This document shows, in pieces, positions 1-29,480 of a DNA stretch of 30,620 nucleotides. Both the position numbers and the translations under genes were made by a program. How positions within the stretch are numbered: position 1 is the stretch's first letter; every line of letters starts with the position of its first letter. A model generated the notes under the pieces. The model was not told where the DNA came from. It saw only the letters and a program-made list of their open reading frames with translations, and did no database searches. Source of the DNA: Psammoneis japonica (taxonomy: Eukaryota); NCBI GenBank assembly GCA_008632985.1, contig QPGO01000092.1, positions 310,001 through 340,620 on the forward strand. The letters are read 5' to 3'.

Positions 1-2950
1 AACAGGCACACAAGACTTCTTTCTTGTGCTTGGACATTTCCAAACAGCACAAACAACAAGCAAGAGCTTCTTTGTCTGAGTTGCACAAGCCCAAAATGGG
101 CGCTAACCTCACACACCTTTTTTGCAATTTTTGCTGGCTTCCAATTTGCACCAACACAGCAAGCACCAAAATGAGCATTTGACTCATTGTCTGCACAGTG
201 ACCAGAGGCTCTGAAACACTTTGGTTTGCAGCTGTTGCTGCAATGGAACAAAAACACTCTGTTTTGAGACAACACAAATGCCCCAGTGTTTTTTTGTTGA
301 CAAGATGATCAACAACAAAGTCCCTCATGTCACCCAATGATGCACAGCATGTCATCAATGCTGTCAGTGCCACCCTGCTCTTTGCTGCAGGCACAAAAGA
401 GTGAGCACTGTCTCTGAGCCTGGCACTGGTGCTCTGACCTCCTTTTTGCCCCAACCCCCTGTTTCCAGAGTCAGCCTCAGTTGTGCAAAAACAGCAAGCC
501 CCGCCAACAAGAAATCCAGCACTGCTCCAACACCTTCTTTGTTGTCCCAGCCCCACATCCAGCTGTGCATGTTTCCAAGCCACTTTTTCTTTCATTTTGA
601 TTCAGTGCTCACTTTTCCTTGACATTGTGACTGTGCCCTTCATTGCAGCCACCCTTTTGTGTGCTGGGACAATGAACACCCACAATGCCACCATCATTTT
701 GCAACATTTGCAAGCAGCCCCACTTGTGCATCAGGTGAAAAAACAAGTGTGCCAAACTGAACACTGCACCAGTGATGAGCTGTTGATGACAGCTGTGCAC
801 ACCAGCTGAGGTGTTGCCTCTGCCAAGCACATGTGGAGGGCCACCTTTGCCCCTGCCAAATTGCCTCCATCTGCTGCAACTGCAATCAGAGGGGTGCTGA
901 CGCGTTCCAGACGTAGGTGGGAATCCGTGTGACATTGGGCCCGTAGACTTCTACGTGCGAGCTCCGTAGTAAAATTACACGGTAATTAAAATGTCAATGA
1001 TCGCCAACAGAAAATGAGGCAATTTTGCGAACGCACAAACTCGCACATGATTGAAGTACATCATTTTTTACTTAGCCAGTTACATTCTTCAGACATTGAA
1101 GAATGTAACTGGCGCATTATTGTTTCTATAAATTTGTTACATAAAACGTCTGGGGCTTCGCAAAACAGCGAGTCTGGACAATTTTTTTTAAATATCACAC
1201 GTAGAAATCTACGTACGAAACATACGACGGATGATAAAAATTATTGTTGTCACACGTCAGTACTACGAGCTCCCACCTAGGGCTGGAACGCGTCTGCTGC
1301 AAGCATCAGCAGTCTCTCTCTGAAATGAGTTTTGTTTTGACAAGGGACAACTCTCAAGCTGAGCACATCGTCCATGCAAGCTGAGCACCTGAAATGTGAG
1401 AAGCAAGAAGCACAAGCTCCTGAAAAGTCTCTTGAACAAGGCTGGTTGTTGGCAGCATGTGAGTGTGCATCTCAGAGGTGGTGTCTTGACCTTTTCTGTC
1501 TTTCAGCTCATTTCTGGTCCAGATTTTTCACAGGCTTCTTCTTGGGAGTCTCAGACAGGTGGGGCACCCTTTCAATGCTGTGAGGATGATCCATTTTCAC
1601 AATTCTCCTGAATGCTGCTGCAGCCACCTTCCACCACAACATGCAGCAACCAACTCAAGCTCACCCAGCTGTGTTGACCAAGGCGCAATGCTCTTTTTGC
1701 TTGCAACCAGCCCAGCTGCAGCTGTCCTTGTTAAGTGCCATTTTAACAGCTGAGGTGCTCAACAAGGCTCCCCATTTTTGCAAGTTATCTGGAAGCACTC
1801 TCCCACTCAATTTCTGCAAAGCAAGTTCAAGAGGAGCATGTCTTTGCACACGCGCCATGGCAGCCCTCTGGCTTGAGTTTGGTCCACCTGTTGAATGACC
1901 TGCAGTCTGCAATGCTTCCACTGTGCAACTTTTGCCACAGCCAAGCCCTCTGCTCATGATGACACTTCTCACCATGGACCACCCACCATGCCACACAAAG
2001 CTTGAGCTCTTTCAGCCTGAGCTGTTCCAAGGTTTGCGCAGTTTTTGAGTGCTCACATGCACGGGGTGTCACATGCATTGACATCTTGGCACAAAATTTG
2101 CACCACACTCTCTGTTCTTTCTCCAACACATGCCAAAAGTTTCAAATCCTTCATGCACAATTTTGCACACCCCCCTGAGCCTGCAGCAGATTTCTCACAC
2201 CCGGTGTGCACCAAAAGCCGAGCCCACACATCTGGTGGTGTGGCTGCAGTCTGCAGTGCAAAACAAGTTTGTGCTCCACATGGGCCCATCAGAGTGAAAC
2301 CTGTCAACAAAATGTGAAAGAAAATTTGCAGAGCTCTTCTCAAGTGCAGCGGTGGGCATGTGCTGCCCTGCACACTGTGCCGTCCCACACACAGGAGAAA
2401 GCATGCAGCAACCGCAGGGCTGCTCACTTGCTGGTGCCATGGACCAGTCAACCCTGCACCATTTTGTTTCAAGTGCCACATGGTTTGGACATGGCATGTC
2501 ATGTGTTGGCCTGTCATGTGCTGCCAACTCTCCGCACCTTTTTTTTGTGTGCACTTGCAGGCAGCATGCAGAGCAAACTGTGCATGTGCACGGTGTGAGC
2601 ACACGACGCACCTGAGGTCACACAAGTCCACGCTGCACACACAGCACAATGTCAGTGCTCACTTTTCCAGTGCTTGCAGAACATGGCTTTGTGCTTGCAC
2701 TCTTGCAAAATGCCATTTGGCAGCACCAAACAAGGGAGCTGCTTTTTGCCCAAGTGACGAGTGAGGCACGACCAGCCACAAACTCAGCTGGCTGGTCTCA
2801 CCTTGTTTCAGCAGACACAATGAGCCTGGAACACTCTGAAGAACAATTCAACTCTCATCTTCTCAATTGTGAAATCTGAGTTGTGACCGAAGCCTGGCAT
2901 TGCCTTGAAGAACAAGCATGTGTGACACCACCCAATGATCTCGGACTCTG
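1..2950. other. TpA/CpG-erased block 1 (probable hypermutated repeat or transposon relic), interrupted by a MITE at 899-1294
   Basis: Manual count: about 1 TpA and 2 CpG in 1-898, and about 3 TpA in 1299-2950. TG/CA is strongly enriched. The six-frame ORFs are Cys/His/Gln-rich and nearly Tyr-free. TE origin is inferred; no transposase motif was recognised. Confidence 0.75.
899..1294. mobile_element. Non-autonomous TIR element (MITE), 396 bp, 4-bp TSD TGCT
   Basis: Left end GACGCGTTCCAGacgTAGGTGGGA matches the reverse complement of the right end GACGCGTTCCAGcccTAGGTGGGA (22/24). TGCT flanks both sides (895-898, 1295-1298). Subterminal inverted motifs are also present (CGTAGACTTCTACGTG vs CACGTAGAAATCTACG; GTGTGACA vs TGTCACAC). 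The interior is AT-rich and non-coding. Confidence 0.9.
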
Positions 2951-3191
2951 ACGGAATTCGCATTCGCATTTCATTGGTGAAAGTGACGACCTGCCTGCTG
3001 CACGACCTTCATTCCACATAAATGTTTGACAACATTTATTTGGCGAATGCCAGAGGCGATGACCCCATGCGACATGTATGCGACGCAGCACGCAGCCCCT
3101 CACAAAACACCAAAACGACCGGAAAGCATGCAGCATGCCACCTACTGTACGCATGTCATCACTCACGACGTCTCAAACAACACCAACAACT

Positions 3192-4717
3192 ATGAAGGCC
3201 CTTGCAACCACCTGCCTTGTGCTCGTTGGCATTCTTTACACGTTCCCAGTAATGACAGGACGTTCTCAGTCAGATGTTGGGAGAGCTGACCGTCTTCTGA
3301 AGCGCCTTGATGCTCTCGAAAGACAGATGGCACACGACCAGGAGCGCATCGCCACACTTGAGAAGGAGCTTCACTCCAGAAAGCTTCAGTCGAGAAAGCT
3401 TCAAGGTGGTGTGCAGTGGGAAGATCTAAACGAGCATCTTAAAAACTATGTGGAATGGAGTCAATTTAATTGGTGGAAGGGGAACGAGTTCAATGCCAAG
3501 TTGAGTTGCATCTTGGGAGAAAGTGACGGCAAGAATCTTGTGGTGGATGGATGCAACATGCGGATTTGAAATGGATCGGGTTCCACAAAAAACATCAATG
3601 GTCTTGGCAATATCATTTTGGGCTACGATGAAGAACAATGCGATTATGACCGCCTTATTATGGGACGACCTGATTACAAGGTCAGAACCAGAATGGGCTC
3701 TCACAACGGTATGTTTTTTTTTTTTGCACTGCTTGCATCAAATCTACTCTATTTCTACCTGACGCATGATTGTTTCAATGCTAGTTGTGGTTGGCGTCTG
3801 CAATGACTGGAGGGGCTTTGGAGGCCTACTTGGCGGTAGAGGTAACACTATTGAGGGTGATTGTTCTTCAGTAGTCGGCGGTTGGAAAAACATGGCAACT
3901 GGACGGCAGGCCGCTATTCTTGGAGGTAAGAAATCGAATCGTTCTTGCAACTGTAATGTCACTGTGACATCATTATTTGTTCACTCATTTTTTCATGTGT
4001 AATCCCGTCCTTTTAGGAGGTCATAACACAGCTGATGGTGAAAAAGGTGAAAAATGTGCCATATCTGGTAAGTCTGCTGTAGTTTTCACAAGCTTGTTAG
4101 TGAGGAATATCAGACTGCTGCATCTGAACCATCTGTCAATTGTTTGTCTATAGGAGGAATTGGAAACAACGCAACTGGAAGATACGCCAGCGTTAGCGGA
4201 GGTAGGCGTTATGAACTCACTCGACTTTCACTGCTGTTCGCGTGACTCCTTCAGCTGAATATTTTGCTCGTTTTGATCCAACAATAGGAATGGATAACAG
4301 CGCCTCGGGTTTGTACTCTAGTGTCCTTGGCGGTACGTCACAAATGGCATAGCTTGTCTGCATCGCGCAAAGCATCTTTCCCGATTATTAATAACTCATA
4401 CCTGAAATACACCCCCATTGTGCTGCTGTTCGTGACCGTCAATCATCTGAATCGTTTGCTCGTTTTGTTCGAACATGCAGGGCAGAAAAACAAAGCCGGA
4501 GGGCAATCCTCGAGTGTCACTGGCGGTACGTCACAATAATTGTGTGTCGCGTTCACCATCTTTCCCACTTTTTACTTATAATACCAAGCACAAATCCTAT
4601 GACCCAAAAGGTATGGAGAATGTAAATGATGTTGATTTCGGTACGGTTATCGGGGGCGCAGGGGTCGCTGACGTCGACCCCAATTTTGGGGTTGGGCCGC
4701 CTTCGTGTTGTCAGTAA
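3192..4717 (+). pseudogene. Secreted Gly/Asn-rich 15-aa repeat (predicted beta-solenoid) protein; 7 exons; in-frame TGA at 3567-3569
   Basis: Exons 3192-3708, 3785-3925, 4017-4067, 4154-4201, 4288-4332, 4481-4525 and 4611-4717 are joined by GT-AG introns into one frame. Order of elements: signal peptide MKALATTCLVLVGILY, coiled coil, SRKLQSRKLQ, VDGCNMRI*NGSGSTKNINGLGNIILGYDE...GSHNVVVG, then repeats such as GNNATGRYASVSGG and DNSASGLYSSVLGG. Confidence 0.8.
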
Positions 4718-4899
4718 TAATGATGCTTCTTCATGTCAAAAACATTGTCCGTTAGAGACGGCTGCATGTGTATTTTTCATGGCCCGAGGCCCGAGCCGTG
4801 TAATCGAATAGCAAAATGAATTGGGGCTTGGGAAAGAGTAGCTGCATATTCCTTAGAACATTAATCAATTTAACAGTTATTGCAAATACAAGATGGACG

Positions 4900-5900
4900 C
4901 AAAAACGAATCCACACATGCCACAATGCCCATCTCAGCTCGAATCAGCCAAATGGAAACTTGATCCCTGCATCAGTCAGCACTTTCACAGGGCTGGAGGA
5001 CTTGGGCCACACAACAAACACTTTGGTGGTGATCTCGTCAAGTCACTCCAACTGTTGCCTGTTGTGGTGGAACATCACCCTGGCAGTTGGTTGCGATTCA
5101 AAAGGCATCCTGATGGAGTCGGAGGCAATTCAGCAGAGGAACAGAGAGTGTTCCTGCTGGGCACCTCTTCAAAAACCAAATGCCCCAGGTGTGAAGCAGC
5201 AACATGTCCAGAAACAATTGCACATGTTTTTAATTTGATGCTGTTCTGAAAGGTTCAACTGGAGAGGGAGGCAAACACCGGGATGAGGAGTTTGTGGGTG
5301 CTGCAGCTGGGTGTAGAAAAAAAGATGGCTTTGACAGCTTGTTCAAGTTTTTGCTTCCTCAAGTTAAACCTTTTGGAGTTTCTCAACAACTTGTTGCAGA
5401 ATGGCAGTGGGGTGATCTTTGTGTGAGATGCCGAGTGTTGGGCACAGTTGCTTGTGAGAGTCGCTGCCACCTGGGCCTCTCTCTCTCTCTCTCTCTCTCC
5501 AAACTCCAGCTCCAGCCCCATCTGGCTGCCACAAAAAGAGGGAAAGAATTGGAGCTTCAGAACTCAAAGGAAAACAGGTGTGCAGTGCAATCTGTCAAGT
5601 CCCATGCAGCGTCATCATGCACACAAGCAAGTTGATCGAAAAATGCCCCGCTTCACTCACGCTGCACAAACCTGGGGGTTGGCTCACTGCTGTGCTCCAC
5701 AGTGCATGTGTTTTGACAACAGCTGAGATGACAAGTGTTGCACCGGGATTGCCACAGTCAGCAGAGCATGTGCCAACAAGGTTGCAGCCTGCACCTGGCA
5801 AAGAACTGAAACCTTGGCTGCAGCCCAAACAAAAAACAGTGGCACAAAGCACCAGGCCCTTTGGAAGACTTTTGGAATTCAAACTGGCAAAGAACAACCA
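4900..5900. other. TpA/CpG-erased block 2
   Basis: About 3 TpA in 1 kb by manual count, reduced CpG, TG/CA-rich. Normal composition resumes on both sides. Confidence 0.7.
5477..5499. repeat. (CT)11 microsatellite
   Basis: Directly visible. Confidence 0.95.
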
Positions 5901-6212
5901 GGAATTGTTTCACGAAGTATTTCTCTCATTTGGTCCAGTCTCTACGACCACTGAAGCTTTCCCCCCCTGTTGAAAACACACTCAGCAACCCTGGGACAAT
6001 TTTTGTTGTCTATGGTGTCAGTTGCCTGATGCTGAGTGCATTTTTTGGCGCCAAAATCGAAGTGACCCGGAAATCTTGTGTCATTCAGGTGGAAACCGCA
6101 GAACTGCATCCAAAACGTCAACCACATCATCGCATCCATCATCAAACATCGCAACACCACCATGCCATAAACGCTACAACAAGCAGCAGAAACTCGCAGG
6201 ATAGTTGTGGCA

Positions 6213-6911
6213 ATGGCTATTCCTCTATTTTATCGCATTCGATCGGGATTGAATGTGGCGATAGGGACGCACCTCGCTGTAACCCTCACATCCATGGCGC
6301 GCTCTCTCGGCGGCTGGGGCGACAAATCCAACCTACTACTGGAGGACGCAGACAATGCTCCACCTTTACAAGTTCGAGATGCACAACATTATGAATCCAT
6401 CACCAGTCTTGTTTCTGACATGTACGCCGGTCGAGGTCTTGTTCAGAAAATTCAGAAACAGCAGCTCTCCCAAGAACATGTTGGAACTGGAGTCACACTT
6501 GCCGATGATGTTTCATTTGAAGATCCCGCTGCTTGCTGTATTGGACGAGAGGAAGTTATAGAAGCCTTTCGAGCGTTGACAGCTCTACAGCCTGAACCTG
6601 TCAGTCGTCCACGTTGCATCAACGTGGAACCTCAGGGAGAATCCATTGCTCTTACGTATCATCTGCATCAGCGTTATGGGTACCTCGGTCGCATGTCCCT
6701 ACATTCGTTACTGGTTGTAAATGTGAAACTGAAGCAGTTGCCGCATTCTCGGGAATTCAATGAGTTTGTTCTTGTCAGCATGGAGGAACAGTGGAATGGA
6801 ATCAAGCCTTTCTCGAATACACTCTTCTGGATCGTGCGACGCATCAATGGTTGGGTCAGTTTCCATGTTACGAGGCGGATGCTGCCGACAAAAGATTCGG
6901 GTTTGCAATAA
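6213..6911 (+). CDS. Hypothetical protein with SnoaL/NTF2-like domain
   Basis: Intronless 232-aa ORF from ATG 6213. The motif LADDVSFEDPAACCIGREEVIEAFRAL and the C-terminal SMEEQWNG resemble SnoaL-like folds. Confidence 0.7.
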   Translation: MAIPLFYRIRSGLNVAIGTHLAVTLTSMARSLGGWGDKSNLLLEDADNAPPLQVRDAQHYESITSLVSDMYAGRGLVQKIQKQQLSQEHVGTGVTLADDVSFEDPAACCIGREEVIEAFRALTALQPEPVSRPRCINVEPQGESIALTYHLHQRYGYLGRMSLHSLLVVNVKLKQLPHSREFNEFVLVSMEEQWNGIKPFSNTLFWIVRRINGWVSFHVTRRMLPTKDSGLQ

Positions 6912-8138
6912 CTGTTACTGCCAACGGCGCTCGATAGATATCTACAAGATTGCAGTCACACTCTGCAATGCATTATGAGCTTTGCGGTGGCTTGGAGAAT
7001 GGTTAGAACAACGTGCTACTCGTCTTATCCTTCCCTACAATAGTTCCTTCTTCGACGGATACAAACGAGTCGATATCCCTCCATCCGAGCCTCGTGTGCT
7101 TTTGGAGTACATTTGGAGCAAGGGCTTTTTGACTCCATACTGACAGTTATTGCAAGTCTTGCATTGTCACATTCGCCAGTCCTAACCTTTCTTGCACCGC
7201 CTGCTGCACGGCCATGTGCAGCTCGATTGAGCTAACGAGGTGCGACAAAAGGAGTTCAACTAACCGGATGAGCTGCCAATAGAAAGTATCTCCTTCTGCA
7301 AGGCTTTCTTGTTGAGGTTCTTGATGCTGTCCTCCAAGCACTCGTACAAATCAGAATTGCGAGTTTAGGATGCAATGCTTTGGTGAGTCACCATAGTTCC
7401 CTTTTGTATGTTCTTTCGAACATGCATTTCGAAACAGGGGTGAGGACGATCGTTATTGAGATCAATGAAAATCCCATGGTCGACAACTATGCCTCGATTT
7501 TGTCGGTCCGACCACGATTGCTGAACGGAGCGCATGTCTCGTTGCTTTCAGACTACCTTGCATAGGAGCGAAAACATTTGCCATTGCACTCGTCGCCACG
7601 TTCCATGCCGTAGCCGCACTCCATCTCGAAGTCGTAGCCCATATCGGAGGAGTCGTCCAATTTCGCTGGAATTATGCTCGGAGGGCTGCACACCAGATTG
7701 TGAGGAGCAGAAATGATGATTACACAGCCTACACTCCGAATCCTGCTTTGGAACGGTCTGTTTCTGCCCAACATCACTCGAGTTTAGAATCCCACGGGAC
7801 CTGCACATTTTTTGCGCATAGCTCATGTCCTTACCGCCACAATGTAGTCAATGGGACCACGTCAATTCAATAGTAGTAGAATAGAGTTGTGATCCAACTC
7901 AAAACACTGTGCTAGCTGACTGTGCTATGCTGTCCGCTCTCGCGGAATACCGGTAATGCTTCCCGCCAATACGTTCGACTCTTTCGACTAACAATGCGAC
8001 GAGCGATAACGTGATGTTTCGATGATGCTCATGAAGTCTTCAAGCGAAAGGTACCGTAGTTTCCCTAACCAATAAAAGGCTATTTGTCAAGAAGATCGTC
8101 ACGGCAACACCTAAATCGCAACCAACATTCAACATCCA

Positions 8139-10500
8139 ATGTTTCGACTCGGAGCAGCAAAAGACACTAAGTCGTTCAAAATCCTCGTAGCAGCAGGAGG
8201 TGCCACTGCCGCGGGCGGTCTGTTGTTTTTGCTCGACCAGTCCGAGAGCAAAGCCTACTTGGAAGCTGCAAACAAAGAGGACCTTGATGGCAAGGATAGT
8301 ACTCGTCACTTGATTCGAAAGTACACGTCAAAGCCTTTACCTTCCCGTAGTTTCAATATTGAGAAACTACAGACTGCCACCAGAGATGATCCGCTGGATG
8401 TTTTGGTAGTAGGAGGTGGTTGTACAGGAAGTGGCACTGCGCTGGATGCAGCGACTCGAGGATTGAAGACCGGACTAGTCGAGCGCTATGATTTTGGTAG
8501 TGAAACGAGCTCTAGGAGTACAAAGCTTATTTGGGCAGGTATCCGATACATTGCCACGGCCTTTTCAGCGTTGCTTCGGTTTCACAACATTACCCGTCCC
8601 GTTGCGGCAGTGTCGGATTTTGTTTCAGAATTCAAAATGGTTCTCGGGGCCCATCGCGAAAGACGAGCTCTGTTGGAGAATAATCCACACCTTACAAACT
8701 GTGAGTATGTAAGATGTTCTCTGCGCTCTTTGTTTCTGTCTGTTGCTCACTTTTCTGAGATACTTTTCGCAATCAAAACCTACAGGGGTCCCGATCGCAG
8801 TTCCGATTGCAAGCTGGATGTCATGGCCACCTCCGTTCGGCCATCCAATCTTTGCAACAGCGCCCTTCACTCTCCCCGCGGTATTCAAGTTTTACGATTC
8901 TCTGAGTGGATTCACTTGTCCTCCTTCACACATTATGGGAACGAAACGTGCCTTGCGCAAGTTTCCTCAGTTGGATGAGGAGGCAAAGTACTTTCAAGTG
9001 TTTTATGAAGGACAGCACAACGATGCGCGTACAAACACATGTATTGCGCTGACGGCAGCCGAACAAGGAGCTACCGTCTGCAACTATACGGAAATGATTG
9101 ATCTGCTGACAGATGATAATGGAAAGGCGATTGGGATCAAGTGCCGCGACAACATATCTGGAAAAGAGTTTGAAGTCTATTCCAAGAGCATCATTTTCTG
9201 TGGAGGTCCATTCACGGACGAACTTCGAAACATAGAGGACCCAGAGAGCAAACCAGCTGTGGCTGCCGCCGCCGGCACTCATATCGTTCTTCCCGCGTAC
9301 TACTCGCCTGGAGGGATAGGCATGCTCGACATCAACACCAGTGACGGGCGTTTCCTCTTCTTTCTTCCTTGGCAAGGATCAACGTTGGTCGGAACAACCG
9401 ATCGGAAAGGAAAGGCAGTCTCTAGTGTTGGACCTCCTGAAGAAGAAATTCAGTGGCTGTTAAATGAAGTCAAAAAGTACCTTAGCGACGATATCCAAGT
9501 CCGGAGAGCCGATGTATTGAGTGCATGGCAAGGCTTTCGCCCACTGGCTTCAGACCCCAATGCTCCCCCGGGAGCACCGGTGTCAAGAGACCATGTCATT
9601 TCCACCAACCCGAAAACCGGCGTCACGTTTATCACGGGAGGAAAGTGGACTACCTACCGCGAAATGGCAGAAGACGTAGTCGACAAAGTTGTGGATTTGC
9701 ACAAGCTCAAGACGACAGGTCCGTCAACGACTGCGAAATTACCGCTGCGTGGAGGAGTTGGATACACTCGCAACGTGCCAGTCAAGCTTGTACAAGAGTA
9801 TGGCGTGAGTGAAGCGACAGCCAAACACCTTGCGCGAGCTTATGGCATGAACGCCTTTGCCGTATGTGAACTGGCTGAACCTACCTCGCAGCGGTGGCCT
9901 CGTTTTGGAAATAAGTTGATTGAAGGATATCCATTCCTCGAATGCGAAATACAGTATCAGTGTCGCAGTGAAATGGTTTGCACGCTGAAAGATATGCTGA
10001 CGTTGCGAATGCGAATCGCCTACCTCAACAAAGAGGCTGCATTGACTGTTATGCCAAAGGTGGCAGACATTATGGCCAAGGAACTCAAATGGAGTAAGCG
10101 AGAACGCAATCGTCAGCTGCAGGAAGCCGAAGAGCACCTCAAGATGTTTGGCGGACCGTACCCTAACAAAGAGGCTTTGGACCAGTCGATCGAGTCTGTG
10201 CACGATGTGAGAAGTCTCTTTCGTACCTTTGATAATGACGGAAGTGGGTACATTGACTTTCAAGAGTTCAAGGACTGCGTTGAGATGTTGAATATTCCAT
10301 TCAAGAATGACAAGGCGGCGATGACGTCTTTCAAAAAGATCGATAGTTCGGGTGACGGAAGAATCAACGAAGACGAATTTGTTCAGTGGTGGAAATCCGA
10401 CGAGCCAGATAAGCTGAAGTCAGAGCTGGAAGAGAAATTCAAATTGACACCCGAGAAGCTGGGCGAGGGAGCGGAATCTCGTGGTGCTGCATTTGGATAA
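8139..10500 (+). CDS. GPD2: Mitochondrial FAD-dependent glycerol-3-phosphate dehydrogenase with C-terminal EF-hand pair
   Basis: Exons 8139-8700 and 8786-10500 (intron GTGAGT...TACAG), 758 aa. Motifs: DVLVVGGGCTGSG, TSSRSTKLIWAGIRY, FYEGQHNDAR, GRFLFFLPWQG, ITGGKWTTYREMAED. EF loops DNDGSGYIDFQE and DSSGDGRINEDE. Confidence 0.96.
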
Positions 10501-10796
10501 GGCGGAGAGGGGATCATAGTATGTTGATGTATTCATTATTTTTTGTAACGTATTATCATGTCAAGTGACCTCTTAGTTCTCCATCTCTGACGACTACTAG
10601 CTAGTAGGGCCTACTAGCTAGAGTGTTGCACAGAGCCATCTAATCGAGAGCACAAGTGGAAACGTGAACAAGAATTTGCTGAAAGCGCAGATGTCACAGA
10701 GATTTCAACGCAAACTCACTCTTTTATAGAATGCCATGTCGGACACATATACCAGGCTACCGTGCAATTCTTAGTTCGACTAAAAAGGGTTCTATT

Positions 10797-11618
10797 CTAT
10801 TTTACAGGATGGCATTTTTCTCGCCAGTCGGCAATCCATTGTAATGCCATTTCAGACGATGTCGAATAGCTCAAATCAAAATGAACGCCGTATAAGCCTT
10901 TTGTTTCTTGGCATGATACGTTCATGCCACTCGTACCAAATATTGTGTTGGCTTTGTAGATTGCGTCATGGTTGACGCCGGTACGCTGTTTGCGCTGGGC
11001 TGTATTGGCCATTTGCAACTTGGCCACTCTGTACCATTCTTCCGCGCTCCCTGATATCATGTTTGAAAAGGGTACAGCATCCGGGGCTTCCTCGTATGAA
11101 TGAATCGTTAGTCGCTTGTCGTTTGGGAGCTCATGATTGAAGTTTTCGAGCGGAAAGGTATTGTGACTGATGAACCAACCACCCTTCACCACCGACATGG
11201 CCAACATTTGCCAAACATAGCGACGGTCTTGGTCACTGAATGCATGTTCATCCATCATATCAGAAAACTTTTCAAAGTCTTGAGGTTGTTTTGCATTATT
11301 GATATTCAGGATTTGGGGTGTCCAGTCATGGTCCGACCATGCTTGGCTCCACGCCGACATCCAGTGTTCGTGGTCGTCGTCGGAGGGACCTGAATCGAAA
11401 GTGTAAATAATGGATTCCGCGGTAGTAGAAGATGTCTCAGAAAGTTCCCGACTTGGTTGTGGTGGTACAATAAATCTCTTGTCATATAGTGACTTGCTCC
11501 CACGAAGCGCCACACCGTTCGGTGCCCTGCAGCTCATGTGAAAACACACAAGTAGAATGGAAGGGACAAGAATCGGCGGTATTTTTCTCCACGGTCTATT
11601 CTTTTTCTCAGCCATCAT
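10797..11618 (-). CDS. Hypothetical type II membrane protein (diatom family, possibly glycosyltransferase-like)
   Basis: Long ORF. Basic N-terminus plus hydrophobic segment (IPPILVPSILLVCF), then WMSAWSQAWSDHDWTPQIL, LAMSVVKGGWFISHNTFPL and ISGSAEEW. Confidence 0.7.
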   Translation of the reverse strand: MMAEKKNRPWRKIPPILVPSILLVCFHMSCRAPNGVALRGSKSLYDKRFIVPPQPSRELSETSSTTAESIIYTFDSGPSDDDHEHWMSAWSQAWSDHDWTPQILNINNAKQPQDFEKFSDMMDEHAFSDQDRRYVWQMLAMSVVKGGWFISHNTFPLENFNHELPNDKRLTIHSYEEAPDAVPFSNMISGSAEEWYRVAKLQMANTAQRKQRTGVNHDAIYKANTIFGTSGMNVSCQETKGLYGVHFDLSYSTSSEMALQWIADWREKCHPVK

Positions 11619-12292
11619 GATGTAAAGTGTGAATCTATGCAGCTCGGGGTGTTGACCGGAGTTTTGAGAGTTTGTGCCTAGAAACTTTTTTGGTGCTTTT
11701 TGCTTTCGAGTCGTCGAGGCAGGGAAAAGAAGGATGGATGTCGGGATCCAAACACTCAAAAACAGCTTTGTGGCGCGAGATCGATGCCGGTCATTTTTGA
11801 ATATTCATCGACTACGCGTCTGCAGATGTCTGAGACATTAGTATCGCAAGGATTGTAGCCACAGTATCTTCAAAAGTGTCTTGGTTTTACTCAATCATAA
11901 ATAGATATTTCCGTTGAAAAGTTAACGCAAATGGAATGACGTTTTCACCTATATGTTTACGCGATCTGCTGTCATGACAATGGACTAATTCCCAAGGCTT
12001 AATCCCGAGGCGTCTTTGGGTGCTTTGGGAATAAGAAAAAGGGTCACAAAGACTTTTTCAAAAGCCTCATGCGTATGACGTCGAGATGCACGCGTTTTCG
12101 CGCAAACGCTTCCGCGTCCACTTCAACTTGGAACTTGGCGCTTGGTGCAGAAGCTGAAGAGAGCGCTATGGTACTTCTATGAAGACGATGAACGGGTGAG
12201 AATCCACAATCATCGTTGTTCTGCAATCCCCGCGACTTTCGAACCTTAGATCATCGTATTGTGACAAGAAAGGAACACGGCTTTGAGAGCGA

Positions 12293-13114
12293 ATGTACTT
12301 TTCGAATAGAAAACTTCTGGTTCTCCTTTTTTGCTTCCAGAGTTTGCCCCGTACCACCCAAGCCGTGAGGAGTCCTTCGTTTTTAACCATGTCGCCGCAA
12401 AATCGTGACTCTGCGGTATTGACTGATTTAAAAGATACAATTCGATCACAAGCTGCTGAAATTCAGAAACTGAAACAGCAAGTACAAAAAAATGGCGGGT
12501 CTGACGTTGGGCATGGAGGCGGCGCACATGGAGGAGGTCCAGCGCCAGATGCTACGACTTACAGGACAAAGAACTTTTTTCATTTGGCAATGTCAAGAGT
12601 GGGATGGCTCAGTCTTTTCTTGGTATCGCTCTCATTGACTGCAATAATCATGAATGGATTTGAGCACACGCTTTCACGTCAGATTGAGCTAGCGTACTTT
12701 GTCCCTCTATTGGCGGGGCATGGCGGTAATACGGGGGGTCAAACGGTAGGAACAGTCCTGAGTGCAATGTCATCTGGAACGGTTACCCTAAGAGATGCTC
12801 CTCGAGTTATTGGAAAAGAAGCTTTGAGTGGGCTTACTGTGGGCTGCTTCCTAGGTGCCGTGGTTGGGCCCGTTGTTCACTATTTTATGGGAATATCTGT
12901 GCATGTTGCAGCAGTCGTATCATGTACTCTCCCGTTGACATCGACCATTGCAGCAACCTTGGGATCGGTCATTCCCTTTGCATGCGTTGCGGCGGGTTTG
13001 GACCCAGCCATCATTTCAGCACCAGCTATGACATCATTCGTTGATGTCAGTGGGCTAATGGCATACTTTATCATTGCCAACCATATCTTTGCGCACTTTG
13101 GTATTGAGCTGTAA
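12293..13114 (+). CDS. mgtE: MgtE/SLC41-family divalent cation (Mg2+) transporter, membrane domain only
   Basis: Motifs RVGWLSLFL, LAYFVPLLAGHGGNTGGQT and GLDPAIISAPAMTSFVDVSGL are MgtE TM signatures, including the Mg-binding Asp. Alternative start at ATG 12389. Confidence 0.9.
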   Translation: MYFSNRKLLVLLFCFQSLPRTTQAVRSPSFLTMSPQNRDSAVLTDLKDTIRSQAAEIQKLKQQVQKNGGSDVGHGGGAHGGGPAPDATTYRTKNFFHLAMSRVGWLSLFLVSLSLTAIIMNGFEHTLSRQIELAYFVPLLAGHGGNTGGQTVGTVLSAMSSGTVTLRDAPRVIGKEALSGLTVGCFLGAVVGPVVHYFMGISVHVAAVVSCTLPLTSTIAATLGSVIPFACVAAGLDPAIISAPAMTSFVDVSGLMAYFIIANHIFAHFGIEL

Positions 13115-13318
13115 CACAAAACTTTGACGGATAAGGACTCGATTGTGATCGTTTAGGTATGCCTCATTATTCTGCCAAATTTTACTCTAATATTAACCCT
13201 TTAGAAGTAGAGACTCACTTGCAATACTTCTCTTTTCGGCGTTTCAAGAACCATAATCTTCTAGAGAGAGAGAGTCACGGTTAAAGAGAAACACGAGCAG
13301 ATATCATTTCACAACTTG

Positions 13319-15673: not shown

Positions 15674-16174
15674 CTCGAGTTGGAAGTACGGTACAGTATT
15701 AGATCCCATGATCTGACATCGAATTGTGAGCAATACACAGAGAAACAACCGTACCGGTAGCGCTGGTCCCGGATTGAAGGCAGACACGACTTGATGTCAC
15801 CGGTGAATAAAACTACTCAGTAGCTTATAAAATTTTATATAGCACACGTGTCACATGAATAGCGAACCCTACTCTGATCATTGATTGGTCAATTGACTGT
15901 CGCACACATCAACTCCGACTGTTCTCCACCAGACTTCAGCCAATCAAATCACTCAATGTACTGGTATTGAACAAGCGTAGGATCTACGTGAGAAAAAGTG
16001 CGAGGTTTTTCCGGTGTGAGCGAGCGAGGGTGTGTGCGTGATGCAGTCGTTCTCACATGCATTTCAGGAAGTTTGTTGCGAAGGTTGAAGTCGAACGAGA
16101 AATACAAAAAAGCGACAACAGCACCGACGATCTTTAATCTGTTTATTGTTTTGTATGGAAGGATCAGCGAGACC

Positions 16175-17838
16175 ATGAGAGCAGGAAACATGTTAAATGA
16201 AAAGAATGCAACTTCTTATCAGAAGGGAGAGGAAAGCAATGCTCTTCTGGATCACGATGTGGAGCGTATGAGTGCGAGGAGTCGCTTTCGATATGAGCGA
16301 AAGAATTCGATGAAGCGAACGAGGCTCGTGGCTTTGGGTGCGGTACTTTTCACCGTTGCTGTTCTTGTCGCTATTACTGCGATATCGAATGAATCTTCAG
16401 AGGGCGAGGAGAGCAATCTTATGCATCGGTAAGACGCAAAGGTATGCACAAGTCGCTATACACTTATCATATCAATTCTCAGTTTTCGTCCTTGCGCTTG
16501 TTTCATAACATCACAGCGAAACCAAGAGCGGCAAGAACAAGTGGCAGGAGCAAATGAAAATGGCAGAAGAGGAGAAAAAGCGTATTGACAAGTGTAACGA
16601 TGGCAAGTACTCGAAAGAAACTCTGAAACTAGCGTACGAGCTACCGTTCTCTGCCCTGTTCAAAGACAATCGCAACCAAAAGAGGTTTGAAGCTTCTGAT
16701 GTGACGTTGGTCGGTGACTATGCTTACGCGGTATGCGACAACTCTTGGGCAATTTCAAGATTTGGGGCCTCGCTAACGCCGTTTTCGAGTGACAACATTC
16801 TTATTGGCGATCCTTACAGGGAGGAAGATGTAAGGCATCATCATCTGTACTGTACGCTGTAATGCTGTGTTGCATCGGACGTATCGTTTGCTCACAGGGC
16901 GATTTAATTTATCTGCGCATTCTCACTTTTAGGAGTCTGGATACGAGGCGATTCTTCATGAAGCTGGAGTGTTTTACATTGTGAGAGAGTCAGTTTTGGA
17001 TGAGGGGTCTTATCATGCCGTGGTGGAAGAGATTACCGTGAACGAAAGCGACACTTTGGACTACGACATTGGAGACTCTTGTCCTTGCGAATTTAAATTT
17101 GGAGGTGACAGGTTAGTGTGTTGAGCTATGTTGTGGTTTGCGCCTGATACTTTTCTCTAACGCACATTGTTTGCTATGCTACTATGTCTCTCCGCGAGCA
17201 GCAAGGGATTCGAGGGTGCGATCTCCTTTCTCGACAGCACCAACACGATGGTTATAGTCGGTCTCTGCGAAGGAAATCTATGTTCAGAGTCCGCCAAAGA
17301 CAAGCCAGGAAATGGTCGCTTAGTAGCAATGAAGAAGGAGCAGGGTGAAGACGGCTGCCAGTGGAAGACCGTGAAGGAAATCAAGATTCCGAAATCAGCT
17401 TACTTTATGGATTATTCTGCGATCACCATGAATGAAGAGGGTGACGTTGCCATTTCATCTCAAGAAAACAGTGCCGTGTGGATTGGAAAGCTCAAGGGTC
17501 TACAGGAGGATAGTGGTTTGTGGGATTTGGATGAGGTGGAGTTTGACGAAGATGACTATAATCTCTTCCAGTTCCCGAAGAGTTCAGAATGTCACACTGT
17601 GTATTGCAACGTCGAGGGAATTCATTGGCTAGACAACAACATGCTAATGGCTGTGAGCGATAAAATGAAAAGCAAGGGAAAACAAGACTTTCGGTAAGTT
17701 TCATCTTCGGTACGGCGGTTTCTCTATTGCAAAAAGAAGTCATCTTACTCGCTCCTTACTCATCATGATCATGTTTTTCTTGTGCGTTTCAGATGCTTTG
17801 ACAAGGACCAAAGTGTTCATGCGTTTGTCTTGCCGTGA
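16175..17838 (+). CDS. Conserved hypothetical type II membrane protein, probable beta-propeller ectodomain; 5 exons
   Basis: Exons 16175-16428, 16517-16829, 16933-17111, 17202-17693 and 17793-17838 splice in frame with GT-AG introns. TM segment LVALGAVLFTVAVLVAITAI. Recurring acidic motifs FEASDV, SGYEAI, SKGFEG, DYSAI and YCNVEGI...VSDK. Confidence 0.85.
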
Positions 17839-18282
17839 TAATTCATCTTGTCTTTTGTCAGACTACATCATACCTTGTTTCGGATACGCTCAAGGTGTAG
17901 TGTTACAATGAGATACATACCAATACATGAAAACAAGCGAAACGCGACCGCTACGAATCCAATATCGCTCTCAAATGAGATAAAATTGAGAGTACTTGCT
18001 AAGATAGCACTACACTAAAAATAATTGACTATTCAAACACGTACATTATGAATAAAGGTTTAGTGTGTTTGAGAGCTCAATCCGAACTCCTTCCCGCCAA
18101 CACGACGGATCTTTGACTTTCGACTTTCTTTTTGCAGTTTCTTTGCCGTTGTGGCGTCACTGCCATCATAGCACTCGTCACCACACAACGCAGCGGAGGT
18201 GAGTGAACAACCACAGCAACGTAAATCGCACCTACAACAGAAAAAGGAAGTGGAATAAAGAAAGCTAGAGGGAGAATCGATC

Positions 18283-19259
18283 ATGGCTAGAGTCCCTGGC
18301 AGACTGATCAACGAAGATGACATGGCCTATCTCAGGGACGATGATAGACCCCCGGTAACAGAGGTCGATCCTTTGCTGCAAGAACCGTCCGTGTTATCTG
18401 GAGACGACGACCTTCTTGATGATGAAGAAGAGGAGACGTCACCACGGCGTTTGGCGATACTATCCTTCTGTATTGTAATGTTTGCGGCCTTGCTTGTTGT
18501 CTCGTTTGATATATATGGATACTATCGCCCGCCCCCGTATTCCAGTCTATCGAAGAAACACAAAAAGAGCAAAAAGTATTATCACAAGCACCCATTTGAA
18601 CAGTACAACACTGACAAGCTACCGAAGAAGAAAAAGAAACACCATCACCATCATAAGTATTGTAATAAGAAAAAGAAGCATTGTCACCGGAAGAAAAATG
18701 CCACAGAAGCACCGATTGAGGACAGCAATCAGAACACGACATCTCAGCTACAAGACTTGAGTGATGACCTGAACTACACAGTCCCTGTTATGGATCCTAG
18801 CGATATGGAGTACAGGACGCTCCCTCCACGCCCCATCAATCGCAGGCTTCGATATACTGAACAGGAAGAGCGGTCGTAGAGAAATGCGAACGAGGCTCCG
18901 TACGCAAGCGCATGCAGTTCAAGACGCGTCATGGGCGAATCTTTCGTCCCTCGTAACGATTTGGACTTGTATGTTTTTGGTTCTTAATTCGTTTGAAGAG
19001 GGGTTGAGGGAGTCGAGGATGATGTCTGATCAGGGTGCAGTTGTATCGAAAGCACGACCATGCGAGTTTTCACTTTAACGGACCGCAGACTCGGAACGAC
19101 GCTGATGCCGCTGCATCTATCCTTGAGCTGTTAGTTAGTTGGTTGAAATGGAAGAATCGCAGGTTTTCTCTGGAAAAGTTCAGAAGATCATTCGAATGGA
19201 GTGCACAACATGAGGACCGGCTTTTGGATGGTAGGCTGCTACAGCAAGAAAATGCGTAG
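18283..19259 (+). CDS. Lys/His-rich single-pass membrane protein; 3' part (after about 18860) frame-disrupted
   Basis: ORF 18283-18879 has an acidic N-terminus, a TM segment (LAILSFCIVMFAALLVVSF), a KKHKKSKK...KKKKKHHHHHK tract and RRL. Protein-like sequence continues in other frames to TAG 19259. Confidence 0.6.
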
Positions 19260-19559
19260 GATGATACATGACATGAGAATGGAAGCCAAAGTCAAGCGCA
19301 TAGAGCGTTAAAACATCTAGCTGTTCGTTTTAGGGCCAATTTTCTCCTCAAGAGTGATCCATTCACCTCACTTTCTCAGGATGCACTGGCATTTAACCAA
19401 TCAATGCGGGCGAGGCACAGCTTCCAGGGTCATCGTCATCTTTCCCAAGGCGACAAAAGAGGAGCAGGTGTTCATGTGTTGAAACCACCGATACAATCTG
19501 CCTGGTCTGAATTGATAAAATCGTGGATCTCCTTCTAGACACAACTGGGCATCATCTTG

Positions 19560-21120
19560 ATTGAAGGTCTTGTCAGACAGATTTTTGTCTCCTCTCCCTC
19601 CAACTTGATCTGTTACAAAACTGCCACACGGCCATTGATGTGTTTTTTGCACTTTGTGATTGACATGTGACCATTTCTCTCCAACAGGGCTGAGCTTCAG
19701 CTGTCCTGATGTGGGGCACTGTCCCACATCTCACATGTCCCTGCTGGGGCTCTTTAGAAAATTCCAAGTCCACAGCAACTGGGAGCAGCACACCAACTGC
19801 TGTCATGAACCCCCGCTGGTGCTTGGGCTCTGTCAAGCTCCCAGTGCTCAGCTTCTTCTTGGAAAATGGCCAATCAGCACACATCCTCCCAGGCTCATGG
19901 CCACAAAGCTGCAGTTTCTTGTGCCTTTGCATGTGGCACAGCAGCACAGAGGGCATCAATCTGTGCCAATGGGTGACACCCAATTTGTCCAAGCTGAGAC
20001 AGCAGCAGAGTGGCAAAGCCCTCAAAAGTTGCTCTTGCAGGTGTTTTTGTGTGCAACAGACACCAACTTTTTGACATCACATGATCCTGAGCCTTGTGCT
20101 CTCATTGTGCGCAGCACCAAAAACTAGATTGCACTCTCTGCAAGTCTGGCCATGTTCATCTTGACAGGAAAAGTGGTTTTTGCAATGTTTTTGGATGTGA
20201 GCACACACTGCTTTCTTCTGTCAGGGGTCTGAGGCTCTTGTCCTCAATGACGTCAAAAAGGTGGCTGGGCTCCAGAGCAGCAGGGCTCTCTCCTCCACCC
20301 ATGCTTGCTGGCGGCAGTTTCTCAAGCATTTGACAGCCACCTCTTGGTTGTTGGGTGTGTTGGGTGCATGCCCAGAGAGACAGACATTTGCACACACAGA
20401 TGGCAGCTAAATCACCACCTGAGTTCCTCCTCCACTCGCTTTCCTTCACCACGGCCAGCGCCATTTGTGCACGTGTTGCGCCGCTGCCCCAGCGACATCT
20501 TGTCAGATTGCCCAGACACAGCTGCCTGATGGCATTTCATCAGTGTGTGTTGGAACATGTTTGGCTCTTGTTGGCCTTTTCTTCTTTTCAGCTTTGGGAG
20601 ACTCTCTCCACCCTCGCTTGACACAGCGGCAGCTCCTTGAGCACCTCATCGTCAATGTGTTTGGGGTGTGTGTGTGTGTGTGTGTGTGCTGGGTGCTTGA
20701 CCTTTCTTTTTTACCACAGTTGACAGCAAGCATGCCCAGATGTGCATCATGTGTGTGTTGACAAGAGACTGTCAGAGCTCTGAGAATTTTGCCACACTCC
20801 TCTTTCAAAATGTCTTTGAAGGTGTTCATCATTGCACTTGATTTTGCCTGGGACATTTTCAAATTTTGAAATGCTGCGGAACAGTGGGCACACTGCTCTC
20901 CTCCATTGGCAAGTTGTTTCACAACACACACACACACAATGACCATGAACAGAGTTCTGCCAACAGCTTTGGGACCTTCTGTGATTTTGACAGAGGACAC
21001 TGCTTTCAATGTTTTCTTGCTCAAAAAATGAAAAACAAGTTGCACAAGAAACTAAAAGTTGCACAAAAAACCATTTGCAGTCACATGGGCAAACATTTGG
21101 CAAATTAGAAAAGCAGTGCT
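19560..21120. other. TpA/CpG-erased block 3
   Basis: About 7 TpA in 1.55 kb by manual count, few CpG, TG/CA-rich. Contains (GT)n and (AC)n tracts. Confidence 0.75.
20666..20688. repeat. (GT)11 microsatellite
   Basis: Directly visible. Confidence 0.95.
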
Positions 21121-21439: not shown

Positions 21440-22783
21440 TTACTTTTGCTTTTTACTTTCGGCTTGCTTTGATGCGGGTGCTTTCCCCTGCCTGACTGGC
21501 CTTTGATTATTCTTGTATGGCGGACGCAAATCATTAGGATCGGGAATGAGACACATTGTTATGGAAATCACAATGGCGGCCAAAAACATGATGCTGTACG
21601 GCAAGTTATCCGCAAACATTCTTTGGATCGTCCTCAGAACTCCCGGCATAGGTCGTCCTTCTGCTTGACGTGATTCAATTGTGCCATCTTGTACGGCTTG
21701 CATAAAGGTGCTCGTCGTCTTGTAATTTAAATCTTGCCAATAATTTTTGGTTTTCACGTCGAGCGCAATGATCTGTGGTGTTTTTGTGACATTAAACTGT
21801 TCCAAGAAACGCCCCCACTCGGTTCCATCCATCCAACCAAAGTAATACTTTTCCACAACTTCTTCAGGACCAGTCGTAGCATAGGACGCCAAGTCCAATT
21901 TCATTTCTGCAACTTGCTGTGCATTGTTGCCGTCTACGATTCCCATAACCAGCGGCTTGCCGTTTCGTCCGAGCCGGTTGAAGTTTTGTGGACCAAAATT
22001 AGTGACCAGAGCCACGTTTTCCTGTATGACCCAGTCATTCAATTCGTCAACCGTCGTTGCCTTGGACATGGTAAACGGCTTTGGTTGTACATTTTCCTCC
22101 ACCTTGACCACAAAGCCCTTTTTGTGAGTTGCTGCAAACTTTGCAGCTTCCTCCTTGGAGGCGCTGGGCGAAAGGAGCGCAAAGCTTGCACTTGCCTGTT
22201 GCTGCCGTGCAACCTGTCCAAACACTTGCGTCAAGTGAGTAGATAAAATCATACTATCCACTCCGGAACCTTTTGCGTGGGGATGGTATGCTACAAAAGC
22301 AACTCCATCGATGCTCTTGAGAGCAACTTGCTGAATGGCTTCATCATAGGTCATTGCCAACTTTACAGGATTAGAACTCATCTTGATGGCAAACTCAATG
22401 ATGGATTCAGCCTTGCGGTTGCCTGGATAGTCGTGTACTTTACCGTCACGAGCAAATTTCAGTGTTGGGTATCCACGGACATTGAACTTGTTGCATAGCG
22501 CTTTGTGCTGCGTACAATCAATTGTTCCAATCGCCATTTTCCCTTGAATACGAGGAGCCACATCATCAAGCACCGGAGCTAAACGTTTACAATGGCCACA
22601 CCACGGCGCAAAGAACTTGAGCAGCCATAAAGAATTTGCAGGATCGTCGCTAATTGCTTCTTGAAACGTCTCACTTGTCAAGGCTACGACTGAACTGTGC
22701 GGAGTTCCGCCACGATAACTTTCAGCGTCAGCCACAAAGGCGCATGATACGAGTACCAATAAGGACAACAGCTTGTTCATCAT
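21440..22783 (-). CDS. Protein disulfide isomerase family, TMX3-like (ER membrane-anchored)
   Basis: Signal peptide MMNKLLSLLVLVSCAFVADA; FFAPWCGHCKRL thioredoxin site; FNVRGYPTL; two inactive Trx-like domains; C-terminal TM segment and KKXX ER-retrieval signal (ESKKQK). Confidence 0.92.
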   Translation of the reverse strand: MMNKLLSLLVLVSCAFVADAESYRGGTPHSSVVALTSETFQEAISDDPANSLWLLKFFAPWCGHCKRLAPVLDDVAPRIQGKMAIGTIDCTQHKALCNKFNVRGYPTLKFARDGKVHDYPGNRKAESIIEFAIKMSSNPVKLAMTYDEAIQQVALKSIDGVAFVAYHPHAKGSGVDSMILSTHLTQVFGQVARQQQASASFALLSPSASKEEAAKFAATHKKGFVVKVEENVQPKPFTMSKATTVDELNDWVIQENVALVTNFGPQNFNRLGRNGKPLVMGIVDGNNAQQVAEMKLDLASYATTGPEEVVEKYYFGWMDGTEWGRFLEQFNVTKTPQIIALDVKTKNYWQDLNYKTTSTFMQAVQDGTIESRQAEGRPMPGVLRTIQRMFADNLPYSIMFLAAIVISITMCLIPDPNDLRPPYKNNQRPVRQGKAPASKQAESKKQK

Positions 22784-22850
22784 GGCTTGTATATCGCCTA
22801 TTATTGGTAAAGTAAGAACGTACAGTAAGATCACCCGTCGTCTTCGTTCA

Positions 22851-22891: not shown

Positions 22892-23151
22892 TCTCCCTCC
22901 AAAACGTGGTACAGAGAATACGTACGATTGTACTTACGAAGAGATCAGTACTGGTACACCGTGTCTGTACCGTATCTATGCGGCGTCTGTGTGTCTATGT
23001 CGATGAAGAGGCGTTCCCATCCGTTCTACCCCTGCCGGTATCACTGATGTCTGCGCGCTGAAATCGCAGAAGTCAAACAACCAAAAATCAGTGCAACCAA
23101 CAAAGACGACGCATCAGCGCTGCCTGTGCTGTAAACACAAGTCTCTTTACA

Positions 23152-28343: not shown

Positions 28344-28519
28344 TAACGCATACCTTATTAATATTTTTGCAATTTTTGTTCCTGACATACCTTTGTCCAG
28401 CGGATGCGATTCATTCTAGAAGCGCTCTCTGGCCTCAAAAAGCCATTGTTGTTGCAATGCCAGGAGCTCAGTCAGAGCTGTGGATGGTGTAAATTGTGTC
28501 GCCACACCATGCTTTCGCG

Positions 28520-29480
28520 TGTCTCGACTTGGGAAGCCTGCTGCGAGTCCCTTGCCGCTGACCCTGGCATTGAAGCGGTTGGGCGCTTTTCGCAGTTTTT
28601 TGACAAGGACCTCTCCGCTGAAGCTTGTTGTGCAGAGATCTTAGTCTCCAATGACCTCGTGGGACTTGTGCAGGGGACTCCTGGTGACATGAAGCTGACT
28701 CACCAGCTGCATGTTGATTTGCAGGTGCCACTTGACCCGGAGTGCTTCCCACAGGTGGACTTGCAGGCAGCTGTGTCAAGGCTTTGAGAGTGTGCAGGCA
28801 GACCTGATGGAGGTGTTTGCCACCCAACACACCATCATTGTCCCACACTTTTTGGCAGGGGGCATCATTGAAGCCTCCAGGGCTTTGATGCCACGCCACC
28901 TTGGAGTCACCAGCCAGCCCTGTGGCAAACACCTTGGGCAACCATGCGCCAATGACAAGTTGGCACCGGCAGTGTCTCACCCTGTCACCCATTTTCTCTG
29001 GCTTGCAGCCTTGTGTGAGATGCATGACACTGTCCTGGAGATGCCCTTGAGCTCTCCGCAGGGCAACCAGCAGTCACCTTGGTCACTGCTGGGCGCGCTT
29101 TGTGCCGCCATGCACACCGCTGTCACCAAGGCACACACCACAATGCTTTTCAGCCAGTGGTGTGGGAGAGCTTTGGGCATTGAGTTGCCCAGCAGGTGAC
29201 CTGCAAGGAGCTTTTGGACCAGATTTTGAGAACCACCCCCACTGGGCACCCTTCCTCAACAATGGTCTGTGAGGACAGCCAGTGCGCACCTCAAAGTTAC
29301 GAACACACCACTGAGATGTCTCCGCACGCACCGCCAGCCAAACGCACTGGCACTCCATGCTGTGGTTGGTGTTCCACATGAAAAATGAAGCACTCGAGAT
29401 CATCATTGAGCCTGCAGGAACTGGCGCTCAGCTTGCAGATCAGTTCACGAAGGGCCCAGTCCAAGCTTTTTTTGAATCTT
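28520..29480. other. TpA/CpG-erased block 4
   Basis: About 2 TpA in 28560-29400 by manual count. CpG is only partly reduced. TG/CA-rich. Confidence 0.7.

Follow-up and report, generated by a model that had tools for sequence, protein, structure and literature searches.

Mutation-accumulation lines of the chlorarachniophyte (rhizarian) alga Bigelowiella natans showed that two viral regions integrated in its genome (186 kb and 25 kb) mutate at about 1000 times the background rate; of the 231 new single-nucleotide mutations found there, 230 were A>G or T>C, and each of these 230 lay on TpA (Mettrop et al., bioRxiv 2026; 10.64898/2026.01.13.699255). The available text of this preprint further describes the larger region as single-copy and transcriptionally silent, reports 124 clusters of TpA-poor, CpA+TpG-rich windows in the B. 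natans genome, and proposes, without proof, that adenine is deaminated in DNA (inosine pairs with C) by an ADAT2-like deaminase; that text makes no mention of CpG, diatoms, or stramenopiles. Here we analyze a 30,620-bp stretch of the genome of the diatom Psammoneis japonica (contig QPGO01000092.1, positions 310,001-340,620; the whole stretch is referred to as the window, and its first letter is position 1), which contains four intergenic blocks (A to D, with A divided by an insert into A1 and A2) that are nearly devoid of TpA and poor in CpG. We propose that these blocks are probably the product of TpA-specific transition hypermutation that acted in place, together with CpG decay, on silenced, single-copy, non-coding intergenic DNA of the diatom nucleus.

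The blocks match the B. natans signature in kind, and would represent a second case of a process known from one recent preprint. Both show an apparent change of TpA to TpG or CpA on both strands, which leaves a scar where TpA is scarce and CpA+TpG abundant; both are limited to defined regions with normal neighboring genes; and the target is single-copy in both. There are also clear differences: the host here is a diatom (a stramenopile); the erasure here is saturated (observed/expected ratio, o/e, of 0.02-0.05), whereas the region derived from a nucleocytoplasmic large DNA virus (NCLDV) in B. natans is described as keeping 3.3% TpA; and the blocks are 1-3 kb long, compared with 25-186 kb. In addition, the P. 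japonica blocks contain no recognizable viral or transposon genes, CpG is depleted along with TpA, and the process is read from its end state, while in B. natans new mutations were seen. The initial annotation of this window, made from the sequence, had stated that it knew of no described mechanism of this kind, a statement that the B. natans measurements have overtaken. We found no report of TpA erasure in diatoms in the literature searched (subscription journals were outside its scope).

Three other systems invite comparison. Cytosine methylation in diatoms is described as co-localizing with heterochromatin marks, and in Phaeodactylum tricornutum as limited to transposable elements (PMC12344493); loss of DNMT5a is reported to deplete methylation in P. 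tricornutum, in work that used CRISPR (PMC9998398). The blocks resemble the product of methylated-CpG decay in that CpG is depleted, with a matching gain of TpG/CpA, in intergenic DNA that looks untranscribed; however, that process cannot remove TpA, and CpG has been lost here less completely than TpA, over zones with other borders. The blocks do show a CpG deficit (o/e 0.04-0.39) with a TG/CA surplus, and two positions at which the reads have CpG and the window has CpA are compatible with methylated sites. This part of the pattern would have an ordinary explanation, the deamination of 5-methylcytosine. Fungal repeat-induced point mutation (RIP) turns CpA/TpG into TpA, and requires duplicated sequence. 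Like the process proposed here, RIP (the subject of the RIPCAL paper, PMC2621366) is a region-limited, saturating transition mutagenesis in a dinucleotide context that leaves a compositional scar. As a model for these blocks it fails on both direction (TpA is erased here, not created) and duplication (the blocks are single-copy). ADAR enzymes act on double-stranded RNA and also edit ApA. The A>G chemistry and the preference for a 5′ U or T are shared with ADAR-type A-to-I hyperediting and with deaminases of the ADAT2/TadA family that are reported to act on DNA (as cited in 10.64898/2026.01.13.699255); unlike in ADAR editing, ApA is not depleted in the blocks.

Extent of the TpA and CpG Loss

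Over the whole window, sliding windows gave o/e ratios of 0.51 for TpA and 0.80 for CpG. The deficit is concentrated in five segments within the four blocks (6,060 bp in total), which contain 14 TpA where 259 are expected at the flank rate (Poisson P ∼2e-90), and 83 CpG where 322 are expected (Poisson P ∼8e-57). The o/e ratios of TpA and CpG, respectively, are 0.02 and 0.04 in A1 (1-898), 0.03 and 0.19 in A2 (1297-2950, with the stretch lacking TpA running on to 3018), 0.05 and 0.24 in B (4890-5915), 0.05 and 0.18 in C (19560-21050), and 0.04 and 0.39 in D (28495-29485), compared with 0.61 and 0.96 in the rest of the window; TpA depletion is thus more complete than CpG depletion in every block. 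TpG and CpA have o/e ratios of 1.64-2.20 in the blocks (2.20 and 1.79, respectively, in A1) versus 1.18 in the rest. Distances between successive TpAs have a median of 15 bp and do not exceed 212 bp outside the block zones, whereas the blocks include TpA-free gaps of up to 810, 1233, 656, and 553 bp. According to per-block counts, AA and TT are not depleted. Two further steps depart from the rest of the window in all five segments: ApT is low (o/e 0.60-0.69 versus 0.94) and GpC is high (1.16-1.48 versus 1.03). The erasure of TpA and CpG in the blocks is real and extreme.

The initial annotation had described four sharply bounded blocks; sliding windows, gaps, and counts all bear out the four blocks, but their borders are sharp only to within about 50-250 bp, and not to the base. 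Its first block was drawn as almost free of TpA over about 1-2950, which holds for 1-898 and 1297-2950 but not for 899-1296, an insert of normal composition that is described below. Our counts agree with the rest of its description, namely about one TpA and scarce CpG in 1-898 (1 TpA and 2 CpG), abundant TpG/CpA with persistent AA and TT, and adjacent genes of normal composition; the low ApT and high GpC were absent from its account.

Read Support

The read data are runs from one sample of one study: X1, which behaves as genomic DNA, with an even word depth of ∼60 across genes, introns, and spacers (over 1100-21099), and X2, which is RNA-like. Contigs built from X1 with 31-letter words, 10-11 kb long and of even depth (∼60), reproduce A2, B, and C: one of 11,410 letters spans 1270-12679 with 3 letters differing from the window, and the region 13645-21099 is spanned by a contig with 6 differing letters. 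Only three of these differences fall within A2, B, and C (∼4.2 kb), namely 1328 (A>T) and 1454 (A>G) in A2 and 19790 (A>G) in C, with none in B. The TpA erasure stands in the reads, because none of these differences creates a TpA. Noisy reads would presumably be incapable of yielding such contigs, and a base-calling artefact, the check that the initial annotation had set, is excluded for A2, B, and C. It is unlikely for A1, for which read support comes from a word search (X1 contains 0.98 of the sampled words of 1-10000), and for D, which lies outside the read comparison. At two sites, 1454 and 19790, the entire X1 depth carries CpG and the window CpA; each of them is either an assembly error at a methylated CpG, or a polymorphism or CpG>CpA change of very recent date, and at most a couple of the CpG “losses” are of this kind.

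TpA and CpG Have Different Borders

Block A1 (1-898; 1 TpA, 2 CpG) is the left portion of one block that is split by the insert, and is itself truncated by the left edge of the window. Block A2 (1297-3018) has three TpA, at 1732, 1744, and 1786, and is CpG-poor only to ∼2941: at this right end of A, CpG is back at 2942, while TpA returns only at 3019. Block B (4888-5917), which includes a (CT)n run at ∼5478-5500, lies between the 3′ end of a plus-strand gene and the 5′ end of the next; to its right there is a TpA-poor shoulder (5918-6167), with 3 TpA in 250 bp versus ∼10.7 expected (flank rate 0.0428 per bp), in which CpG is normal from ∼6049. Block C (19537-21052; 5 TpA) lies between two convergent genes and includes simple (TG)n and (CA)n runs at ∼20660-20690 and 20924-20938. 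The order at its right end is opposite to that in A, with TpA back at 21053 and CpG only at 21148 (the CpG-poor zone extends to 21147). Block D is a TpA-free domain (28491-29487, with 2 TpA) around a CpG-poor core (∼28660-29284), with normal CpG at its edges; the domain exceeds the core by ∼170-200 bp on each side.

The borders of the TpA-poor and CpG-poor zones thus do not coincide, with offsets of ∼50-240 bp at the right end of A, the left end of B, and both ends of D. Because the borders differ and the loss of TpA is more complete than that of CpG, we read them as two processes with overlapping but separate targeting. Each block occupies an unusually long intergenic space, with gene ends (from X2 contigs and open reading frames, ORFs) ∼100-400 bp from the block borders. 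At the block ends we found no terminal repeats, no long direct repeats, and no insertion hallmarks, and tandem repeats in the window are trivial.

At 5560-5919, overlapping block B, another contig of X1, with a depth of 67.6, aligns to ∼5583-5643 (3 substitutions, one inserted letter) and then joins position 5919, omitting 275 bp of the block; the shorter side of this junction is only 25 letters long, and the contig may be either a chance match or a deletion allele.

How the Composition Arose

From the rest of the window to the blocks, TA+CG falls from 9.59 to 1.60% of dinucleotides (−8.0 points) and TG+CA rises from 14.71 to 22.84% (+8.1 points), while the total of YpR steps (Y, pyrimidine; R, purine) is unchanged (24.4% in the blocks, compared with 24.3% elsewhere in the window). 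The gain of TG+CA equals the loss of TA+CG, as would be expected from transitions within these steps, and the pattern is not a general A>G change, because it spares AA and TT. TG occurs as often as CA, and the two are intermingled, with no strand patches of one or the other (runs test, z from −0.98 to +0.59 in all five segments), as expected if either strand was struck independently, site by site. With the gain matching the loss and the YpR total constant, a second, region-limited process from TpA to TpG/CpA beside CpG decay, as the initial annotation had proposed, is the best reading of the composition.

The TpAs that survive in the blocks do not look randomly drawn: 9 of the 14 are in the form Y-TA-R (P = 7e-5), a context that accounts for 16% of the TpAs in the flanks (n = 1,027), and none is R-TA-Y, versus 30% in the flanks. 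This hints that adenine was hit preferentially before a pyrimidine (T-A-Y), an enzyme-like sequence preference, in a hypothesis that was framed after the survivors were inspected.

Taken together, these observations would fit two separate, locally targeted mutation processes that rewrote the blocks in place. The first, a fast one, would change A to G at 5′-TpA-3′ on either strand, giving TpG or CpA, and would have run to saturation; it would be the same kind of event as that measured in B. natans. The second, slower and ordinary, would be the decay of methylated CpG to TpG/CpA. We infer that the targeting follows a silencing mark on newly arrived or untranscribed DNA, which would overlap with cytosine methylation without being identical to it.

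Copy Number, Coding Signal, and Homology of the Blocks

The blocks are single-copy: word depth over them is 60.7-69.1, compared with ∼60 over genes, and no block has a paralogue at ≥80% likeness in run X1, except for short pieces at simple repeats. The blocks are also unlike one another, with no block-to-block similarity by blastn, nor in a purine/pyrimidine (R/Y) code, which is blind to transitions. By depth, paralogues, and mutual likeness they therefore agree with the single-copy target of the B. natans hypermutation; the restriction of the erasure to four delimited blocks, with flanks at a TpA o/e of 0.61, agrees with it as well.

Searches for coding potential and for known elements gave no credible result. 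Pfam returned zero matches for 8 block ORFs, and no credible match for 30 read-through frames (a weak one to Ada3, E 0.031, had 14.8 bits versus a cut-off of 24.5). Codon periodicity in the blocks is at the null level (median chi-square 5.9 with 6 degrees of freedom, versus 10.6 outside the blocks), and periodicity in R/Y code falls inside the shuffle null, where the highest value, a borderline one, belongs to a minus-strand frame of A1 (0.11 versus a 95th percentile of 0.116). When compared with 1.84 billion representative proteins by HMMER, this A1 frame had one match (E 7e-6), to a repetitive Cys-rich protein, which we judged compositional and spurious. For 5 block ORFs searched against the viral contigs of IMG/VR, no locus was returned, although one ORF reported one tblastn relative without a locus; no Rfam families or tRNAs were found in the blocks. 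No transposon or viral domain is recognizable in the blocks by these searches, and degraded foreign DNA would look alike. The initial annotation had suggested that the process acts on repeats or transposable elements, which it inactivates by recoding Tyr to Cys or His. Neither suggestion is borne out: with single-copy depth, no close paralogue, mutually unlike blocks, no credible Pfam match, and no codon periodicity, the recoding has no object here, and the blocks are not recognizable as repeats, transposable elements, or coding DNA.

A MITE-Like Insert in Block A

Block A is interrupted at 897-1296 by an insert that resembles a miniature inverted-repeat transposable element (MITE), with terminal inverted repeats from ∼900 to 1293 and CTG flanks at 897-899 and 1294-1296; its arms (896-922 and 1271-1297) are 27 nt long and 89% complementary. 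The composition of the insert is normal (TpA o/e 0.86, CpG o/e 1.51). Its word depth in X1 is ∼17,600, with single sites up to ∼52,000, compared with ∼60 for single-copy sequence, which implies a very high-copy element with hundreds of copies; its end pattern had 0 matches in metagenome contigs. Because its TpA and CpG are normal, the MITE entered block A after the erasure.

The copies of the MITE vary among themselves. All five variant sites listed for 1100-1296 (1138, T>C; 1194, 1215, 1262, and 1265, A>G), from a listing with 93 further variant rows, read TpA in the copy within the window, while 50-69% of the depth at them has TpG or CpA; for five changes that are each A>G or T>C, the chance that all fall on TpA is ∼0.002. 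These variants hint at the right kind of change for a TpA to TpG/CpA process, and are unpolarized.

Weighing the Explanations

Several observations count against hypermutation in place. When all TA and CG were converted by simulation in the flanks, or in 4.6 kb of non-coding DNA of the window, TG and CA were reproduced, but ApT stayed too high (0.068, compared with 0.040 observed), GpC stayed too low (0.057, compared with 0.082 observed), and the CC/GG surplus was missed. Including the T-A-Y preference in the simulation brought ApT down and GpC up, which explained only part of this residual; it may reflect either ancestors of another composition, as imported DNA would be, or further biases. 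A 4-mer asymmetry that is predicted from the T-A-Y preference (419:249 in the blocks versus 1006:905 in the flanks) is explained by dinucleotide content (observed ratio 1.68, Markov expectation 1.82 ± 0.15), and gives the preference no independent support. No ancestral or unmutated copy of a block was found, so polarity is read from composition, and the TpG/CpA state in the MITE copies could be the ancestral one. The searches described above found no viral or transposon homology that would mark the target as foreign DNA. Finally, the X1 reads are from the same sample as the window, and their platform is not on record.

The main rival is that the blocks arrived with their present composition, i.e., that virus, plasmid, or transposon DNA was hypermutated or edited elsewhere (e.g., as RNA or during replication) and was then inserted between host genes, with nothing acting on it where it now lies. 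We consider this unlikely, although several points favor it: it would cover the differences of ApT, GpC, and CC/GG from the flanks, where in-place conversion of host-like DNA fails; the blocks occupy otherwise short intergenic spaces, as inserts would; and the targets in B. natans are integrated viruses. However, the block ends lack the terminal repeats and other hallmarks of insertion, no viral or transposon homology was found, and the TpA-poor shoulders and offset borders resemble graded spreading rather than the clean edge of an insert. If the editing had been of the ADAR type, on RNA, ApA should have fallen too, yet it is not depleted. The other explanations are lesser ones.

Selection could in principle keep TpA and CpG out, either of a functional structural DNA element or of a long RNA that evades UpA- and CpG-directed nucleases. 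Joint suppression of CpG and UpA under selection is described for cytoplasmic RNAs and RNA viruses (PMC3829696), and the blocks are fixed at full depth. We nevertheless regard selection as improbable: TpA and CpG are almost wholly depleted, to the same degree on the two strands; no sequence is common to the four blocks, not even after R/Y recoding; searches for Rfam families and tRNAs found none; TG/CA rises by as much as is lost; and a high-copy MITE sits within one block. A repeat-induced process, in effect RIP run backwards, with duplicates sensed by homology and then mutated, is slightly less probable still. It would suit the MITE, which is the only multi-copy element here and which varies among its copies at TpA in all of the five sites listed above, but the erased blocks are single-copy, mutually unrelated, and without paralogues at ≥80%; the window copy of the MITE, very high-copy as it is, is not erased; and the larger target region in B. 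natans is single-copy too. A sequencing or assembly artefact, in which native DNA was miscalled at modified bases (for example, a modified T or A at TpA, or 5-methylcytosine at CpG), is the least probable explanation. Two of the three differences between the window and X1 in the blocks speak for it (CpA in the window, CpG in the reads), but the X1 contigs reproduce A2, B, and C without any extra TpA, and TpA is normal where these contigs cover the MITE and the genes beside the blocks.

For hypermutation in place, which we prefer over these alternatives, a broader proposal can be made tentatively: diatoms may have an active DNA-editing defense that strips every TpA from newly silenced or invading DNA in ∼1e5-1e6 generations (by arithmetic from rates in the B. 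natans preprint, 10.64898/2026.01.13.699255), that prefers T-A-pyrimidine, and that works beside cytosine methylation while being targeted apart from it. If this is true, then together with Bigelowiella it would make TpA editing an old and widespread genome immunity of the stramenopile-alveolate-rhizarian (SAR) lineages, and TpA-free scars could serve, in any algal genome, as a map of earlier invasions. Finding this scar in a diatom as well would mean that the process is not peculiar to one species, and would extend it to another algal group that is distant and open to genetic work, with handles such as the possible T-A-pyrimidine preference, the separable TpA and CpG borders, and an unmutated MITE that dates the event. 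TpA-free blocks would also flag old insertions that are beyond the reach of homology searches.

Host and Gene Content of the Window

The genes in the window appear by homology to be diatom genes, which agrees with the diatom host assumed in the initial annotation, and the host is not Bigelowiella. For example, a PDI-like gene (21440-22834, minus strand) has diatom relatives at 38-43% identity (in Nitzschia, Coscinodiscus, Mayamaea, Thalassiosira, Cylindrotheca, Cyclotella, Seminavis, and Entomoneis), along with a few partial matches to animal thioredoxin-domain proteins. The mitochondrial glycerol-3-phosphate dehydrogenase has relatives at 84% and 79%, followed by those of Corethron (64-66%), Seminavis (62%), the labyrinthulid Hondaea (53%), and Triparma (49%). 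In 80 loci around the PDI relatives (271,706 bp; mostly short and taxonomically mixed), one 500-bp window passed a filter of TpA<0.15 and TG/CA>1.5, and had 74% GC; this serves as a weak negative control, and not as a diatom test.

The RNA-like behavior of run X2 is seen within 4066-17792, where eight intervals of 85-103 bp, bounded by GT..AG (or CT..AC), are missing from its contigs; they give the positions of introns in at least four genes, such as the one at 8700-8786 in the gene for glycerol-3-phosphate dehydrogenase. X2 has zero contigs on bins wholly within A2, B, and C, a count that carries no weight on expression.

Two stretches of the window outside the blocks also deserve mention. 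At 12650-13670, two X1 contigs (depth 45.6 and 53.2) lie over one stretch, with 42-45 letters differing per 370-390 bp, in addition to indels and the replacement of a 91-bp piece. The two look like alleles that have diverged strongly, over a stretch that takes in the 3′ end of an MgtE-like gene and the beginning of its neighbor. At 13319-15796, on the minus strand, lies a gene for a secreted-looking Endonuclease I (Pfam PF04231), and its terminal domain recurs in the neighboring ORFs 13319-13708 and 13815-14504. An internal duplication (13544-14053 and 14268-14779) is the sole strong match in R/Y code in the window.

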